Virus record (IMG/VR): IMGVR_UViG_3300030207_002573
Span: 1 to 40,863 of that record
Source: a virus
Taxonomy: Duplodnaviria; Caudoviricetes
Strand: one strand, 5' to 3'
Length of the DNA stretch: 40,863 nt
Under the pieces are notes generated by a model. The model worked only from the letters and a program-made list of their open reading frames with translations. It had not been told where the DNA came from and did no database searches. The position numbers and the translations under genes were made by a program. Shown here piece after piece: positions 1 to 36,646 of the stretch; within the stretch, counting starts at the first letter, position 1; every line of letters begins with the position of its first letter.

Positions 1-543
1 ATGGTTTTAGCCAAAGCTACTCATAAACCAAAACTTGAAATAGTAGCTAACCCACGAACAGAAAAGAACATCACACCTAAACAAGAAGAGTTTGCAAGAT
101 TGTATGTATGTGAGGACATCAGCCAAACAGAGGCCGCAGTCAGGGCAGGTTACTCTGTAAAGTCGGCACATGCCATAGCATCACAACTGCTAAATGGTCA
201 ACGCTACCCACACGTAGTAGCGAGGATAGGCGAACTTAAAAGTGAACTTGCTAAAAAATATGAAGTTACTTTTGAGGGCCACGTCAAAAAATTGGCAGAG
301 ATACGTGATGCAGCTATGACTGGTGGTAACTTCGCCGCAGCTGTCGCCGCTGAAAAATCACGAGGCCAAGCCGCAGGCCTCTATATTGACCGTAAAGAAA
401 TACTCCACGGTAAAATAGACCAGATGGATAAAGAGCAAGTAATGAAAGAAATACAAAAGCTACAAAAAGAGTTCCCTGCTCTTGCCGCTGTTGCTGATGG
501 CAATGTGGTAATAGAAGGACAGGTTAAAGATAAGACAAAATAA
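1..543 (+). CDS. terS: Terminase small subunit
   Basis: N-terminal HTH pattern 'ITPKQEEFARLY...SQTEAAVRAGYSVKSAHAIASQLL' typical of TerS; lies upstream of terL. Start is at the window edge. Confidence 0.85.
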   Translation: MVLAKATHKPKLEIVANPRTEKNITPKQEEFARLYVCEDISQTEAAVRAGYSVKSAHAIASQLLNGQRYPHVVARIGELKSELAKKYEVTFEGHVKKLAEIRDAAMTGGNFAAAVAAEKSRGQAAGLYIDRKEILHGKIDQMDKEQVMKEIQKLQKEFPALAAVADGNVVIEGQVKDKTK

Positions 544-1383: not shown

Positions 1384-1849
1384 CAAGCCAGAGAGTAAAC
1401 TTTGGCATAAGTTAAGGGAGGGGACTCAAGACCTAGGCGTGTTTTGGACACGCTTAGAGTCTTGGGCGACTCCAGGGATACCCGACTTACATGGCATAAT
1501 TGACGGAACAAGTTTTTGGCTTGAACTTAAAGTCCACAGGTTAAAGTCACTAAAAAGTATCGCACTGCGTCCGCATCAAATTGCGTGGCAAACCAGATAT
1601 TTTATGAATAAAGGTCAAGTTTACAACTTGGTTCATCATCCTTCGTCCTCTACCCTGAATATATTTGGGGGAGAAAGAGCGATTAAGATGGGAGAGACCA
1701 AGGGCCATGCACCATTAGAACCTGACTGGTGTTGTGGTTCTCCGTTTGATTGGCATGGTGTCATCAATCATATTCTGTCATCATCGTCTCATCTCAAATC
1801 AAATCAAGATTACGACGGAGAGACGATTACGACGGAGAGAGGACAATAG
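1367..1849 (+). CDS. PD-(D/E)xK nuclease (VRR-NUC / Holliday junction resolvase-like); probable start at ATG 1376
   Basis: Motifs 'PESKLW', 'PGIPDL', 'FWLELK', 'LRPHQIAW'. The C-terminal tail runs into the repeat tract. Confidence 0.75.
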   Translation: MQAMTSKPESKLWHKLREGTQDLGVFWTRLESWATPGIPDLHGIIDGTSFWLELKVHRLKSLKSIALRPHQIAWQTRYFMNKGQVYNLVHHPSSSTLNIFGGERAIKMGETKGHAPLEPDWCCGSPFDWHGVINHILSSSSHLKSNQDYDGETITTERGQ

Positions 1850-2178
1850 ATAATGATTGATGATGATATATATATTGATCGTTATTGATCGTTATTGATC
1901 AACCTTGATCGGGGACGATTAATAATTGACGAGAGCAAAAAATACAACAAACGACAACAACAGACCATTGTGGCAGTGTATACAATAACCATTGTTTAAC
2001 TAGCAAAGGTATTGACCAATGGTATTTGTGATTTGTCTTATTGTCGTTTGTTTATTGGCAATGTTTTACGATTATAGTTGAGATTAAGATTACGACGAGA
2101 GAGAGCGTGTGTGTATGCGAGGAGTATTGATATAGGTACGTATACATATATCACGTCAAATCAAATCAAATCTTGTCG
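1760..2178. repeat. GA/TC-rich short repeat arrays
   Basis: TCAAA x3 (1794-1807 and 2156-2172); GATTACGACGGAGAGA x2 (1808-1823, 1825-1840) with a variant at 2088-2105; TTGATC x4 at exact 10-bp spacing (1875-1910). Confidence 0.9.
2019..2081 (+). CDS. Putative 20-aa hydrophobic peptide MVFVICLIVVCLLAMFYDYS
   Basis: Translated by hand; AAAGGT RBS-like sequence upstream resembles those of neighbouring genes. Confidence 0.3.
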   Translation: MVFVICLIVVCLLAMFYDYS

Positions 2179-2204
2179 CGGGCAAGGGCCAAAAATGCCG
2201 TGAT

Positions 2205-2264
2205 AAAAAAAGTTTAAAAAAATGCATTATTGGGGTTTACATATAATGTATTGCACATTATATT
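2205..2264 (+). promoter_or_regulatory. Sigma70-type promoter with A-tract UP element
   Basis: -35 TTTACA (2236-2241), 17-bp spacer, -10 TATATT (2259-2264), A-tracts at 2205-2222. Confidence 0.65.
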
Positions 2265-2327
2265 AATAAGCATGGCAATAACGCCACAACGGGCTTAGCG
2301 GCCCACCATTAAAAAGGGTTTAAAAAA

Positions 2328-2837
2328 ATGGTAAAAGCAAACACAAAGTTTTTAAAAACTTTACAGCCAACTACAGCGGCAACTAACACAGTAACAACTG
2401 GCGCGGTTTTAAAAGGCCCATTGTTAACTAGCACAGGCGCATTTAACTACGCAGCTGTGCAAACGTTTATTAATACCAAAGCTGGGGGCAATGCCAACAA
2501 CGTTGCTATAGTGCCATGTAAAGGCGTTACCTTTGCCAGCTTTACAATGGGTAAAGGCGGTAAGGCCCCATGTAAAACACTAGGCGGTTTTAACGCCCAG
2601 CAATATGGCGTTAGGCAAACCATGCTATGGCATGCGTTAAACGGCCAGCTTACTTTAGGCGCTTGGTTAAACGCCTGTAAAAGCAAGGGGGCGCTTGGTA
2701 TACCCAGCGGTGGGCAAAGCGCAACCAAGCCAATAGTTTTGTTGGCATTGCTTAACGGTGGGTTTAGCCGCAACGCTAACACATGGGGCGTGCCACAGGT
2801 ACAGCTAGTAGTTAAACCCCAAACCGTTAAAGGCTAA
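2328..2837 (+). CDS. Hypothetical basic protein with no Asp/Glu, encoded in a GA/TC-free island
   Basis: 169-aa ORF with its own promoter, AAAGGG RBS and terminator. No family recognised. Confidence 0.8.
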   Translation: MVKANTKFLKTLQPTTAATNTVTTGAVLKGPLLTSTGAFNYAAVQTFINTKAGGNANNVAIVPCKGVTFASFTMGKGGKAPCKTLGGFNAQQYGVRQTMLWHALNGQLTLGAWLNACKSKGALGIPSGGQSATKPIVLLALLNGGFSRNANTWGVPQVQLVVKPQTVKG

Positions 2838-2846
2838 CGGTTTTTG

Positions 2847-2875
2847 TGGGGGGCAAAATTGCCCCCCATTTTTTT
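2847..2875 (+). terminator. Rho-independent terminator
   Basis: TGGGGGGC-aaaatt-GCCCCCCA stem followed by T7, about 10 bp after the stop codon. Confidence 0.85.
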
Positions 2876-3147
2876 GTGCCTATTTAGTTGCCTAGGCAAC
2901 TATTAGCTAAGCAACTAATTTGCCAAGGTACCCCTAAATTTTGGCGCGGCAAAAACCATGCCAACTTTTGCGGCCCCCCTGAGACAAAAATGGTGGTATA
3001 CGTAGCACCATTTACCCTGTTTCGCACGATTCAACATTATCCAAAAACATATTACTAGAAAGTCAAGTCCGTTGACCTACCCCCCCTTTTTGTTAGTATT
3101 GATTATAGGTTCATTGTCCTTGAAAAATTTTCGATATATAAGAAAAT

Positions 3148-4614
3148 ATGGTTAGTGAGTTGGAGCATGTTCCCGAAGAACATTTAAAAAAGTTTGCTAC
3201 GTTATTAGACCGAGCGAGTTATTTAACTAAAGCAGAGTCAGCGCGTAGTGATTTTATGACGTATTGCCAGATGGTGTGGCCTGAGTTTGTGAATGGACGC
3301 CACCATGGAATAATGGCGGAGAAGTTTAACCGATTAGCTTCTGGTGATTTAAAACGGTTAATTGTGAATATGCCCCCCCGACATACGAAGAGTGAGTTTG
3401 GTAGTTATTTATTGCCTTCGTGGTTAATGGGTAGGAAGCCAACATTAAAGATTATGCAGACAACGCATACGGCAGAGTTGGCATTTAGGTTTGGACGTAA
3501 AACAAGAAATTTAATGAATACTGATGAGTATCGAGGTATCTTTGATGTTGAGTTACGAGCAGATAGCCAAGCTGCGGGTAGATGGGAGACATCAAAGGGT
3601 GGAGAATATTTTGCGGCTGGAGTTGGTGGAGCGGTGACGGGCCGTGGTGCGGATTTATTAATTATTGATGACCCGCATTCTGAACAAGATGCGTTATCGC
3701 CTACAGCATTAGAACATGCTTATGAGTGGTATACATCTGGCCCCCGTCAGCGATTACAGCCTGGAGGGAGTATAGTAATTATTATGACTCGTTGGGCTGA
3801 GAATGATTTGACGGGTAAGCTGTTGCGTCAGCAGGCGCGAGATATATTAGCAGATAAGTGGGAAGTTGTAGAGTTTCCAGCATTAATGCCAGAGTCGAAT
3901 GAACCATTATGGCCTGAGTATTGGAAGAAAGAAGATTTATTAGCGGTTAAGGGAAGTTTATCGGTAGGAAAATGGGAAGCGCAGTGGCAGCAAAACCCGA
4001 CGAGTGAGGGAGCTGCGATACTTAAACGTGATTGGTGGCAGGAGTGGGAGAAAGAAGAGTTACCGCATTTAGATTATGTTATGCAATCTTATGATACAGC
4101 TTATAGTAAAAAGGAGTCAGCGGATTACAGTGCTATAACAACGTGGGGAGTTTTTTATCCGTATGATGGAGCGCCAGCAAATATATTACTTGTTGATGCC
4201 CAGAGGGGTAGGTGGGATTTTCCTGAGTTACGACGTAAAGCATTAGAGGAATATAAGTATTGGGATCCGGAATGTGTATTAATTGAGGCAAAAGCTTCGG
4301 GTATGCCATTAACTCAAGAATTGCGTAATATGGGTATTCCGGTGCAGAATTATAGTCCTTCTAGAGGTAATGATAAATATACGCGAGTAAATTCTATTGC
4401 ACCATTACTCGAATCAGGATTAGTATGGGCACCAGATACTCGTTGGTCGGAAGAGGTGATTGAGGAGTGTGCGGCGTTTCCTGCTGGAGAGCATGATGAT
4501 TATGTTGATACGGTAACACAGGCGTTGCGAAGATTTAGAGAGGGTGGTTTTATACAGCACCCAGAAGATTATGAAGATGAAGAGGCACCCCCAAGAGTAA
4601 GGAGTTACTATTAA
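3148..4614 (+). CDS. terL: Terminase large subunit
   Basis: Walker A variant 'MPPRHTKS', Walker B 'LLIIDDPH', 'IIMTRW', nuclease motifs 'SYDTA' and 'HDDYVD'. Confidence 0.95.
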   Translation: MVSELEHVPEEHLKKFATLLDRASYLTKAESARSDFMTYCQMVWPEFVNGRHHGIMAEKFNRLASGDLKRLIVNMPPRHTKSEFGSYLLPSWLMGRKPTLKIMQTTHTAELAFRFGRKTRNLMNTDEYRGIFDVELRADSQAAGRWETSKGGEYFAAGVGGAVTGRGADLLIIDDPHSEQDALSPTALEHAYEWYTSGPRQRLQPGGSIVIIMTRWAENDLTGKLLRQQARDILADKWEVVEFPALMPESNEPLWPEYWKKEDLLAVKGSLSVGKWEAQWQQNPTSEGAAILKRDWWQEWEKEELPHLDYVMQSYDTAYSKKESADYSAITTWGVFYPYDGAPANILLVDAQRGRWDFPELRRKALEEYKYWDPECVLIEAKASGMPLTQELRNMGIPVQNYSPSRGNDKYTRVNSIAPLLESGLVWAPDTRWSEEVIEECAAFPAGEHDDYVDTVTQALRRFREGGFIQHPEDYEDEEAPPRVRSYY

Positions 4615-26713: not shown

Positions 26714-28339
26714 ATGGCAACAGAAGAACAAACCATTATCCAAAGAGAGGCTCCTGAGGTCGAAGCCTTAAAATTAGGTCTGATAAATGCAGCTAAGGGA
26801 CTTGTTGAAACAGCTCCTACAGGTGGTTTACCACAAACACAGTTTGCTGCTTATGATCCTTTTCAAGATACAGCTAGAACATTAGCTACTTCCGCTATTG
26901 GTTCTTATGCTCCTTATTTAACAGAGGCTTTTACAGGCAACCAAGAAGCTACAAATAGATTAAAAAATGCAGTAACTAAAGCATACACTGATGCGCTTGC
27001 TAGTTACACCGATACAGATAGAGATACATTACTACAAACCGCTGGTGATAGAATCACTACTGCATTAGGCACTCCTACAGGATTTGGTGGTATACTTGGT
27101 GCTATCAATTTGGGAGCAGGGGCTACGCAAAACGTCCGTAGAAATATATTTGGTACTCCAGGAGAAGCTGGAACAGGTGCTTTGAGTGCAATTGATGCAC
27201 AACGGCTAGGTATAGACCAAGGGATTACTCGTACAGCTACATCTGATACAGAGCGAGCAAGATTAGCTCAAGTAGAAGCTGTTACAAAAGCTCGTGCAGC
27301 AGGAGATTTTGGTAAACAAAAAGCAACTGATGCAATATCAGCATTAGCAGGAACAGGTTTTAGCCCTACTGAGGCAGGAATAGGTGGTGTTTTTGACCCT
27401 AGTACAGCAGTTACTGAGTTCCTTAACCCTTATACATCTGCTGTAATAGATCAAAGTTTGGCTGATTTACAAAGGGCAAGTGATATTGCGGCTATACGTG
27501 AAGATGCACAGGCAGCACAGGCAGGGGCGTTTGGTGGTTCCCGAGCAGGTATTGTACAAGCAGAACGCGATAGAAATTTGTTAGATGCTCAAGCAAGGAT
27601 TGCATCACAATTAAGGCAACAAGGGTACGGACAAGCTCTACAGCAAGCTCAGCAAGCGTTTGAAGCAGGCAGAGCGGGACAGCAAAATTTAGCACAACTA
27701 ACAGGACAGTTAGGACAGGCAGGAGCAGGTACACAATTAAGTGCAGAACAGTTAGCACAACAGGGAGCATTGGGTTCTGGACAGTTGGGGTTAAGTGCAT
27801 CACAAGCAGCTGCAGACCTTGCTCTTAGAGGAGGACAGTTAGGATTAAGTGCAGAAGAATTAGCATTGCGAGAGGCAGCGCAACAAGGCTCCCTTGCTAG
27901 TGAAGCAGCTAGGTTAGGGTTGAGTGAAGCAGAATTAAGAGCGCAGGTTGGCTTGCAAGGAGCGCAACTTGGATTACAAGGAGCGCAAGGTTTACAAAGT
28001 GTTGCTGGCGATATAGGACGTCAGGCAACGCAACGTGCGGCACTTGGCGAGTTACAATCTGGGTTACAAAGACAAGATATTGATATGATGAACCAGTTAG
28101 GTCAACAACGGTTCCAGACAGAGCAAGCGAAACTAGATGCCCAACAACAAGACCAATTAGCCGAAGTATACGAACCATACCAACGGTTAGGTTTTTACAG
28201 TGATATATTACGAGGAGCGCCATCTACACAAATGAGTATATCACAGGCTTCTACTCCCAATCCTTCTTTACTTAATCAAGTTGTCGGTGGTGCGGCTACA
28301 GGGTTAGGTATAGCAGGAGCAGCTAATAAAATATTTTAG
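26714..28339 (+). CDS. Putative DNA ejection (pilot) protein, Gln/Ala/Gly-rich
   Basis: 'FLNPY...AGAFGGSR' motif and helical QAG repeats. Confidence 0.65.
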   Translation: MATEEQTIIQREAPEVEALKLGLINAAKGLVETAPTGGLPQTQFAAYDPFQDTARTLATSAIGSYAPYLTEAFTGNQEATNRLKNAVTKAYTDALASYTDTDRDTLLQTAGDRITTALGTPTGFGGILGAINLGAGATQNVRRNIFGTPGEAGTGALSAIDAQRLGIDQGITRTATSDTERARLAQVEAVTKARAAGDFGKQKATDAISALAGTGFSPTEAGIGGVFDPSTAVTEFLNPYTSAVIDQSLADLQRASDIAAIREDAQAAQAGAFGGSRAGIVQAERDRNLLDAQARIASQLRQQGYGQALQQAQQAFEAGRAGQQNLAQLTGQLGQAGAGTQLSAEQLAQQGALGSGQLGLSASQAAADLALRGGQLGLSAEELALREAAQQGSLASEAARLGLSEAELRAQVGLQGAQLGLQGAQGLQSVAGDIGRQATQRAALGELQSGLQRQDIDMMNQLGQQRFQTEQAKLDAQQQDQLAEVYEPYQRLGFYSDILRGAPSTQMSISQASTPNPSLLNQVVGGAATGLGIAGAANKIF

Positions 28340-35700: not shown

Positions 35701-35978
35701 AAGAGATGGAAAAGGCTAGACCACTTGCTACCTTCCCTAGTTCGGGACAATCATTTGGTGTAAACCCAGAAACAAACCAGAACATTGAGACGACACCTAT
35801 TGCTCCTGCATCCCCACCACCATCAATGGATTTAAGTCAGATCGCTCCTCCGCCTCCTATCGCACCCACAGGAGGAAGCCAAGTTGATGTTGCATCACTG
35901 TTTCCATTTGATCCAACCTCAGCAGCAATACAAAAGCGACAGCAACAGCAACAAGGTTTAGGCTCATTAATGATCTAA
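32730..35978 (+). CDS. Putative large internal virion protein
   Basis: 1082 aa, last gene of the morphogenesis operon; 'SLFPFDP' C-terminal motif. Confidence 0.6.
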   Translation: MSLDDSLDERMIQAVSGPEIDEVEVLKSAQDITKVGDPVEGASLGFEGEAQPSRVTGLGDGLEPVFGDSILTTAITGFNRGLANLVDPVIYNAAVALRKIGEATGSPMLANIQPERNQMARVFASGDFETQNIMSNVLGIPIQYGEGADIGVTPEEGLASEFVYGGGKFLGEGAPVAMGLQTAANLATKSAGLLTPKVVPVEGGTAANVVDDILRMQAQAPGTVAATEAGISGLAGGVTETADSPTLGMTAAFLPSAIPGIVKNLPVVRGGTGAIGWLRQRTPGKISDLRDVATGAKSATEGEGGQLLVNKAQRMIQEQLNLNPEQSKAAVERFQEIVAKIPELETMAPGQVFDNQALIKTFQDAVLDAPNEQIPALNALLEGYVSGATRFKGTIGVEGTDTGVTGNNILVMDSARKTFNLGVKKEADDIVDEEAFLTREASKIERTGSQRQTERLKLQASLAKRVEDAREAVEKEKIRLGIVQERRPIKASGKREKVLTRPDDLVEPAAVLALQQRVQREILPREGTEAFSFDKLPASIKSIAQWDSSKDFTFRDWLLAREEVSNAISKGSTYGDAQLPTLMAYRDMLEDFAITGFNNLGPKYKEFIDFAKTNLYDPFERSLIMGVTRRDQKADRFITQGEQITKTFLKQEPEILRRFVKTVGTDAPEVNDLKNVLLDDLYDSAYVGTNGKWDDAKINKWMGDNKNYLEELPGTGDNNFFQDLTNTQRLLQQSLLRRKQATQRKEEIQKSLLGKFFERETKQGTLQPEEDFLTQLVMRPTKEGGQRTMVKTRNDFLASEEGKSLGKTGAENVFRRTIFEKLDEQMNIMQDPEKFKAWMQQDKNTQLLKDAGFSDSHMKDLYLLADASERINTIPILEFKGLNSSGIIAKIAEALGTSPAAVSTRVLAVKENRISPRTAFIYLASRAIGAQNQIRMNALMREAITDPQLARMLTTELPEANPVGRIPGPIQRKVNNYLIGSGIEAVEQIDQEMEKARPLATFPSSGQSFGVNPETNQNIETTPIAPASPPPSMDLSQIAPPPPIAPTGGSQVDVASLFPFDPTSAAIQKRQQQQQGLGSLMI

Positions 35979-36646
35979 AGTAAAAATGCTTGTGTATAAT
36001 TACTGAGTTGTTGTTTAGATATATTGTAATATTCCTCAACTAACTCAATACCTGTAAACTCCATACCAAATTGTTTGCAGACAACGCCTGTTGTCCCTGT
36101 ACCCATAAATGGGTCAAGTACATTTTGGTTTGGATGACAGAACGAACGTAAAATAAACTCTACTGCTTTCGGGTGCATTACTGCTCTATGTTGTTCTTTG
36201 TAAGGGTTCTCTGAATATACAGGTGTACAAAAATGATTTTTTGTATACGTATCATTACCTTTAAGTGCGGTATTATTATTACTCAATACTAAAATATATT
36301 CGTAAGCATTAGTAACTGCATCACCACCTGCTGGAGTTGGATTAGATTTATTCCAAATTATTGTTTCTATTATTTGTTCTGCAAAATGCCCAAACAACTT
36401 ATAGAGTTCAACACGATTGTAAAAGTTTTTCTGCACATTATAAAAGACATTACCTTTACAAACTCGTAAACATTGTTCTATAGATTCTACAAGGAAATCA
36501 AAATAATCATCACTAATATCTGTAAACGAAGCGTACTTATCATCCCTCTTTCTATTGTAAGGAGGCGATGTAAACACTGTATCAAACTGTTCATTTGCAA
36601 ATGTTTTAATTACAACAGTGCTATCGCCTAGGATTAAATTATCCAC
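35975..36646 (-). CDS. Orphan beta-class amino DNA methyltransferase (N4-C or N6-A)
   Basis: Catalytic 'TSPPYN' precedes SAM-binding 'VLDPFMGTGTTG'; no cognate endonuclease adjacent. Confidence 0.9.
   Translation of the reverse strand: MDNLILGDSTVVIKTFANEQFDTVFTSPPYNRKRDDKYASFTDISDDYFDFLVESIEQCLRVCKGNVFYNVQKNFYNRVELYKLFGHFAEQIIETIIWNKSNPTPAGGDAVTNAYEYILVLSNNNTALKGNDTYTKNHFCTPVYSENPYKEQHRAVMHPKAVEFILRSFCHPNQNVLDPFMGTGTTGVVCKQFGMEFTGIELVEEYYNISKQQLSNYTQAFLL

Follow-up and report, generated by a model that had tools for sequence, protein, structure and literature searches.

A transcription unit free of GA and TC dinucleotides precedes the terminase gene of an HTVC023P-type marine phage and recurs in its relatives

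The window, that is, the whole 40,863-bp stretch of phage DNA analysed here, contains next to the large terminase gene (terL) a transcription unit in which neither GA nor TC occurs on either strand, and this island is a real, strongly selected and recurrent feature. Our recount found a site at 2202 and none again until 2981, a gap of 779 bp, exactly as an earlier note on this DNA had read it, and the second-longest GA/TC gap anywhere in the window is 64 bp. With 3,996 GA/TC in the window (about one per 10 bp), 78 sites would be expected in the island at the rate of the remaining window and 96 from its own base composition, in line with the dozens (one per 8-10 bp elsewhere) that had been estimated before. 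None of the other nine dinucleotide classes has a comparable gap outlier in the window.

The encoded protein does not account for this depletion. Given the exact island protein and the codon usage of the window, about 12.5 GA and 14.3 TC would be expected in the open reading frame (ORF) and none is observed; 0 of 20,000 synonymous simulations were free of GA/TC, and the exact probability is 10^-15.9. All six serine codons are AGC, and the codons GGA, AGA, CGA, ATC, TTC, GTC and CTC are unused. Since the 268 non-coding bases of the island, including a promoter-like site and a terminator stem, are likewise GA/TC-free, the absence of Asp and Glu from the protein is insufficient as a cause, and the earlier claim that the free stretch spans promoter, leader, ORF and terminator holds, while the claim that the constraint lies on the nucleic acid and not on the protein alone is supported. 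Chance and base composition are ruled out by the length of the gap, the expected counts and this probability. A 4-8-bp host restriction site does not fit as the avoided word either: every GA/TC context is missing from the island, and in G001, one of the two nearest near-complete relatives, the two-base GA/TC class gives by far the strongest gap, with a score of 70 versus at most 23 for 3-mers.

An assembly artefact can be rejected, because contigs from another study's run match positions 2240-2407, 2378-2909 and 2919-3247 with 0, 0 and 2 differences, respectively, and because islands of this kind are also present in diverged relatives. Among those relatives, free islands are 537-862 bp long. 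Islands at the locus before terL, which the earlier note had proposed to look for in related phages, do recur there, with no GA/TC at all in 22 of 71 distinct genes at this position.

Table 1. Features of the island, its surroundings and one distant gene, in window coordinates
Feature	Position	Strand	Basis or remark
Terminase small subunit (terS), context	1..543	+	phrog_51, 2.5e-17
Short tandem-like GA/TC-rich repeats abutting the island's left edge	1770..2180	.	
GA/TC-free island (TC absent on both strands)	2204..2980	.	recount; expected 78-96
A-tract before the -35 box, putatively UP-element-like	2204..2224	+	sequence; similar A-tracts upstream in relatives
Sigma-70-type promoter-like TTTACA-17-TATATT (10/12)	2236..2264	+	same position in close relatives
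5' leader with two small hairpins and purine-rich AAAGGG replacing a GGAG-type ribosome-binding site	2270..2327	+	sequence, relatives
ORF of 169 aa, basic, 0 Asp/Glu, 16 Lys/Arg; copy B of a two-copy phage family	2328..2837	+	
Intrinsic terminator-like hairpin and T tract (stem 2846-2869)	2846..2876	+	10 pairs, 7 G-C
Perfect 16-bp palindrome, sole copy in window	2886..2901	.	
C-run then TGA, the island's right edge in most free alleles	2974..2982	+	conserved also in island-less alleles
Terminase large subunit (terL), fixed right-hand neighbour	3148..4614	+	phrog_38, 2e-111; 62% to HTVC027P
N6/N4 DNA methyltransferase, SPPY motif	35975-36646	-	

The edges of the island follow the parts of this unit (Table 1). 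Its left edge is the start of the A-tract, about 30 bp before TTTACA-17-TATATT; the match of this site to the promoter consensus is weak by itself, since six such sites were found versus 4.5 expected by chance. Folding of the 5' leader is not significant (z -1.1), that of 2835-2982 reaches z -4.2, and there is no match in Rfam. On the right, the C-run that ends the island lies 167 bp before terL in the window; the corresponding edge lies 141-187 nt before terL in 16 of the 22 free genes and 347-366 nt before it in the six that have a longer spacer. The 16-bp palindrome is operator-like; among close relatives, some have it on the downstream side of copy B and others on the upstream side, and it is missing elsewhere (sites at L017 9006-9019, L010 3054-3067 and L016 3623-3636).

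Several observations were made around the island. The repeats on its left, of TCAAA type and including GATTACGACG and TATTGATCG three times each, differ in copy number between strains and are possibly terminase or origin sites. A block of about 50 bp within 3072-3147, just 5' of terL and after a second C-run, is conserved clade-wide and might serve as a late promoter or in packaging. As to a possible physical genome end at the C-run, 9 of 62 contigs begin no more than 300 nt upstream of terL and 1 of 55 ends equally close downstream; the beginnings are scattered over 120-283 nt. The single RNA run (n=1) gave one contig of 187 nt at 2869-3052, a small share, which is evidence neither way on transcription. 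Small genes around terS show, in the window's subclade, a strong depletion of TC on the sense strand alone with GA near normal (6 TC versus 18.6 expected, 1 versus 14.3 and 1 versus 19.5); they lie at 623-1084 in the window, at 46442-46933, 47974-48357 and 50463-50984 in G001, and at 58077-58616 and 59654-60010 in G002. Other presumed early genes are not purged and show at most a partial sense-TC depletion.

The island ORF belongs to a family known, in the searches made, from uncultured viruses only. No homologue from a cultured phage was found among 50,697 records, the ORF product has no Pfam, PHROG or PDB-sequence match, and in the Atlas it is matched by unnamed viral clusters only. Structural comparison brought little more: Foldseek gave no significant match, the models have a pLDDT of 90 for copy A and 72 for the window's protein, and the best structural match has Z 4.9 (rmsd 3.4, 84 aligned), with no entry reaching Z 5. 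Many of the weak matches at Z 3-4 (MecI, BlaI, Fur, TFE-alpha, RPA32C) are domains of winged-helix type. For the product, a role as a small basic factor that binds DNA is weakly predicted.

Each phage carries two copies of the family, copy A further upstream and copy B immediately before terL. Copy A is acidic and holds 35-70 GA/TC (48 distinct genes), while GA/TC counts in the 71 distinct copy-B genes are 0 in 22, 1-5 in 17, 6-13 in 9 and at least 14 in 23. In all 45 same-locus pairs, which are related and not independent, the GA/TC count of copy B is below that of copy A. A highly diverged family member of 209 aa (L075 2512-3141) still has only 2 GA and lacks TC; L014 4556-4910, a member truncated at the end of its contig, is GA/TC-free. 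G007 has near-identical copy-B genes at both contig ends (29-460 and 58614-59042), reflecting either contig ends that overlap and vary between strains, or a gene duplicated in tandem.

The two strands are not treated alike. Outside Asp/Glu codons, copy B has less sense GA (TC when read on the template strand) than copy A in 45 of 45 pairs (again related, not independent), and this deficit holds in all 18 pairs whose copy B keeps ordinary sense TC; sense TC is avoided in some alleles only, whereas avoidance of template-strand TC is seen in every pair. The L179 and L225 alleles have 0 GA and 16-23 TC, and others have 0 TC and 2-5 GA, nearly all within retained Asp/Glu codons. The earlier note had argued from the loss on both strands for selection on double-stranded DNA; selection on the DNA of the whole transcription unit is supported, but a strict strand symmetry does not extend across the clade. 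Given that the sense-GA loss is the universal part of the signal and that the protein is basic, one may ask whether the constraint falls on the transcript or the protein (a GA-cleaving RNase, or a requirement for basicity), so that the loss of TC would be a by-product. We regard this as very improbable, and for the fully free alleles it is largely refuted: sense TC is exactly zero in the 22 free genes, promoter and post-terminator DNA are free too, and the ORF remains improbable once the protein is given.

The substitutions themselves point to selection rather than mutation bias, since they are mixed. At 203 differing TC/GA sites in 12 allele pairs, TC is replaced by TT in 36 cases, GC in 38, AC in 28, TA in 26, CC in 22 and TG in 17, and the 36 of 203 for TC>TT exclude a deamination bias. 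The protein has followed. Nine alignment columns are Asp or Glu in at least 70% of 26 copy-A proteins, and none of them is acidic in 11 free copy-B proteins; a two-base constraint on DNA can therefore remove both acidic residues from a protein in which they are otherwise conserved. In a quick tree, the 40 copy-A rows form one supported clade, and free copy-B alleles fall in about eight places, interleaved with non-free ones, a pattern that cannot separate repeated gain from repeated loss. Among 58 metagenome loci of the window's clade with enough upstream DNA, from a contig set that partly overlaps the viral set, the gap reaches at least 150 bp in 41 and at least 400 bp in 18. Closely related phages may differ: L016, with a terL 99.6% identical to that of the window, has a copy B with 10 GA and 18 TC, and the L055 and L054 genes, 91% identical, form an allele pair with and without TC.

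The window is a fragment of an HTVC023P-type marine phage, with a terL 58-62% identical to those of HTVC023P and HTVC027P. G001 and G002 share about 82% DNA identity with it over 31-34 kb, and the capsid and PolA of G002 are 71-74% and 51-52% identical, respectively, to those of HTVC023P/027P, within a common module of terL, portal, capsid, PolA and helicase. We know of no isolate of the window's clade. Next to PolA, near-complete relatives carry genes for an HD-type nucleotidase, for a thymidylate-synthase (TS) homologue and for a glycosyltransferase, as well as an HMUDK helical domain that stands alone. All 11 near-complete clade genomes have this domain (PF18723, HMUDK helical domain / aGPT-PPlase1), which is unmatched in four short close fragments that are uninformative. 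The TS homologue (PF00303) is, in 7 of 7 genomes, 41-45% identical over its full length to the dUMP hydroxymethylase of phage M6. It has Asn where CMP hydroxymethylase has Asp, at what is presumably the substrate-specificity position. A glycosyltransferase of one of two types adjoins the PF18723 gene in 19 of 19 loci checked. Type B matches PF13692 marginally (27.4 bits, cut-off 27); type A has no Pfam or PHROG match, and its Atlas neighbours at 0.98 carry PF00534 and PF11440 (AGT). The two types look unrelated and swap at the same position (clusters of G001-G019, L233-L251), and type A is sometimes accompanied by cupin, nucleotidyltransferase or methyltransferase-like genes, which hints at different sugars. 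The kinase and amino-acid transferase of the M6 cluster (ORFs 38405, 40188 and 41685) match YuA and none of G001-G007, and PF18748 is found in 0 of 4 clade genomes with M6 positive, so the chemistry of this cluster differs from the one studied. The window ends inside the primase gene, before this cluster, whose presence in the window's own phage is deduced from G001 and G002. The earlier suggestion that the phage excludes its own modification from the cassette has thus gained a named candidate, a thymidine-modification cluster of near-complete relatives that lies beyond the window's end.

In HTVC023P/027P-like controls, none of 160 loci contained the family or a gap reaching 150 bp, and PF18723 was found in 0 of 7 near-complete genomes; the link between cluster and island is a single clade-level contrast. 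No TC-, TG- or TS-free island exists in YuA, M6, PaMx11, JL001 or SH-Ab 15599, all of which have the same helical domain.

We consider it probable, with moderate confidence, that the island is a modification-free cassette for the host RNA polymerase in a DNA whose TC thymines are glycosylated. The genome would carry 5-hydroxymethyluracil (5-hmU) made by the dUMP-hydroxymethylase homologue, and the protein with the kinase helical domain, together with the adjoining glycosyltransferase, would decorate it at TC with a bulky mark, predicted to be a sugar. Such a mark might hinder the host RNA polymerase, chiefly when on the template strand. It would be copy B that is expressed when marked DNA enters, its unit kept unmarked and readable on entry by the purge of 5'-TC-3' from both strands, and copy A would serve later. 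We infer the mark, its TC context and the timing of expression; the context is read from the island itself and is circular until measured. Published work offers precedents: TG/TC are the contexts of thymidine hypermodification (PMC6449724, PMC7653180, PMC13458397), NTC is preferred by a phage thymine dioxygenase (PMC13229309), and phosphorylated 5-hmU lowers the output of E. coli RNA polymerase to 10% of that from a 5-hmU template (PMC6457204). Several points speak against the mechanism, among them the five cultured phages that have the helical domain and no island, the L016 allele with its 10 GA and 18 TC, and the unpurged early genes. Templates with glucosyl-hmC are reported to be still transcribed (PMC11550810). 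The thymidine marks studied so far prefer TG, yet TG/CA is undepleted in the island (observed/expected 1.25). Finally, phages whose enzymes are very similar have islands of differing strength; no link with glycosyltransferase type was seen among 17 loci of known state, and G019, G018 and G003, all of type B, have copy-B genes with 2 GA/5 TC, 10/26 and 11/23.

More tentatively, and with somewhat less than even confidence, copy B could be a kind of 'boot sector', a duplicated regulator recoded without TC or acidic residues so that it is readable from marked virion DNA, and whose product opens transcription of the marked genome. This would bear on an open question, that of how an unmodified host polymerase begins to transcribe a hypermodified phage genome, and, if true, such islands would allow the sequence context of an unknown DNA modification to be deduced from assembled sequence only. 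Natural test material is provided by near-identical alleles, some containing TC and some not, and by a second copy of ordinary composition within one genome. The motif-free architecture from promoter to terminator is observed directly, and the mechanism behind it is what we infer; the literature searched, which covered few subscription papers, yielded no account of such a motif-free unit in a modified phage.

The variation from allele to allele is better explained by a different pressure. The TC mark may be real, and the cassette purged to escape a host defence acting on modified thymine, such as a Brig2-like glycosylase or a modification-dependent nuclease, with copy B an early counter-defence gene. 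Brig2 is reported to block the thymidine-modified phages M6, YuA and Ab18 (10.1101/2025.10.29.685425). Such a pressure would depend on the host, as the varying strength of the island in phages with near-identical enzymes and the scatter of free alleles over the tree would suggest, and it accounts for the loss on both strands. A strand-blind nuclease, however, would not give the asymmetry seen in the 18 pairs that avoid sense GA and keep ordinary sense TC, although template lesions left by a glycosylase could. The presence of the family twice per phage clade-wide looks more like a core function. A host defence had also been the second option of the earlier note; we hold the explanation given here to be unlikely, though it is the main rival.

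Rather improbable, in our judgement, is a purge driven independently of the thymidine cluster, by a host enzyme recognising unmodified TC, of the DNA ADP-ribosyltransferase or deaminase type, or by a phage nuclease cutting GA/TC. TC is a known enzyme target, and host-dependent variation would again be explained. This leaves unexplained why the island and the family are confined to the cluster-bearing clade, and one free gene gains little if the remaining genome is unprotected; the low share of C>T (36/203) argues against deamination as the mutational cause.

The marked base might instead be the G or A of GA, either through 7-deazaguanine inserted by DpdA or through methylation by the N6/N4 methyltransferase encoded in the window. 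In phage iggy, DpdA acts strictly on GA (PMC10484667), and the methyltransferase is carried by the window, G001 and G002, all fully free. Nevertheless, none of DpdA, FolE, QueD, QueC and QueE of iggy has a match in any of 7 clade genomes, whereas CAjan is matched by four of them, and QueC is found in 0 of 4 clade genomes with iggy positive. The methyltransferase is present in only 2 of 11 near-complete genomes and absent from G007, G011, G012 and G013, whose copy B has 0 TC. These absences rule out both DpdA/preQ0 and the methyltransferase as a general cause, and a mark on GA seems to us scarcely credible. In G002, one TAA was reported inside the methyltransferase match. CAjan has no island. 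Phage iggy (MN029011), a case of strict GA modification, has three GA/TC gaps inside hypothetical ORFs (at 27693, 39299 and 42699), which in order of length measure 171, 161 and 157 bp, above the usual scatter and far weaker than the window's island.

To return to the modification-free cassette, among its closest known counterparts is the thymidine hypermodification from 5-hmdU in M6, YuA and PaMx11, Salmonella phage ViI, Delftia phage phiW-14 and Acinetobacter phage SH-Ab 15599. The relatives resemble the M6/ViI type in their dUMP-hydroxymethylase homologue, their HD-type nucleotidase and an aGPT-PPlase1 gene beside PolA. They differ in having a glycosyltransferase instead of a P-loop kinase or an amino-acid:DNA transferase, and the window's avoided step is TC only, where the contexts reported for the M6/ViI type are TG and TC (PMC6449724). 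TS and aGPT-PPlase1 have been reported for clades V, VIII and IX of HTVC023P-type phages (Wittmers et al. 2022, PMC9599517), and the window most likely belongs among these clades, since the phage group and the gene cluster are the same; the portion of that paper available describes the cluster as restriction protection and mentions neither a motif-free cassette nor a duplicated gene (PMC9599517). Base J (glucosyl-hydroxymethyluracil) of kinetoplastids shares the predicted sugar-on-5-hmU chemistry and a reported link to the stopping of polymerase (10.1101/753004); unlike the phage system it is eukaryotic and arises from oxidation of thymine in DNA, and the analogy is functional only. A possible likeness to the glycosylation of hydroxymethyl-pyrimidines of the T4 AGT/BGT kind lies in the putative GT-B glycosyltransferase next to the hydroxymethylase, suggested by the marginal match of type B and by the Atlas neighbours of type A. 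The 7-deazaguanine (dPreQ0) set at GA by DpdA in CAjan and iggy has the identical two-base target on the opposite strand, in phages that, unlike the window's clade, have the DpdA pathway. The T7 0.3 region is an example of restriction-site avoidance in early-injected DNA. Such avoidance (PMC12455610) is likewise a local purge of a motif where function precedes the remaining genome. In the window, unlike in restriction-site avoidance, the motif has two bases, the purge is total from promoter to terminator, two amino acids are lost, and the likely writer is the phage itself.
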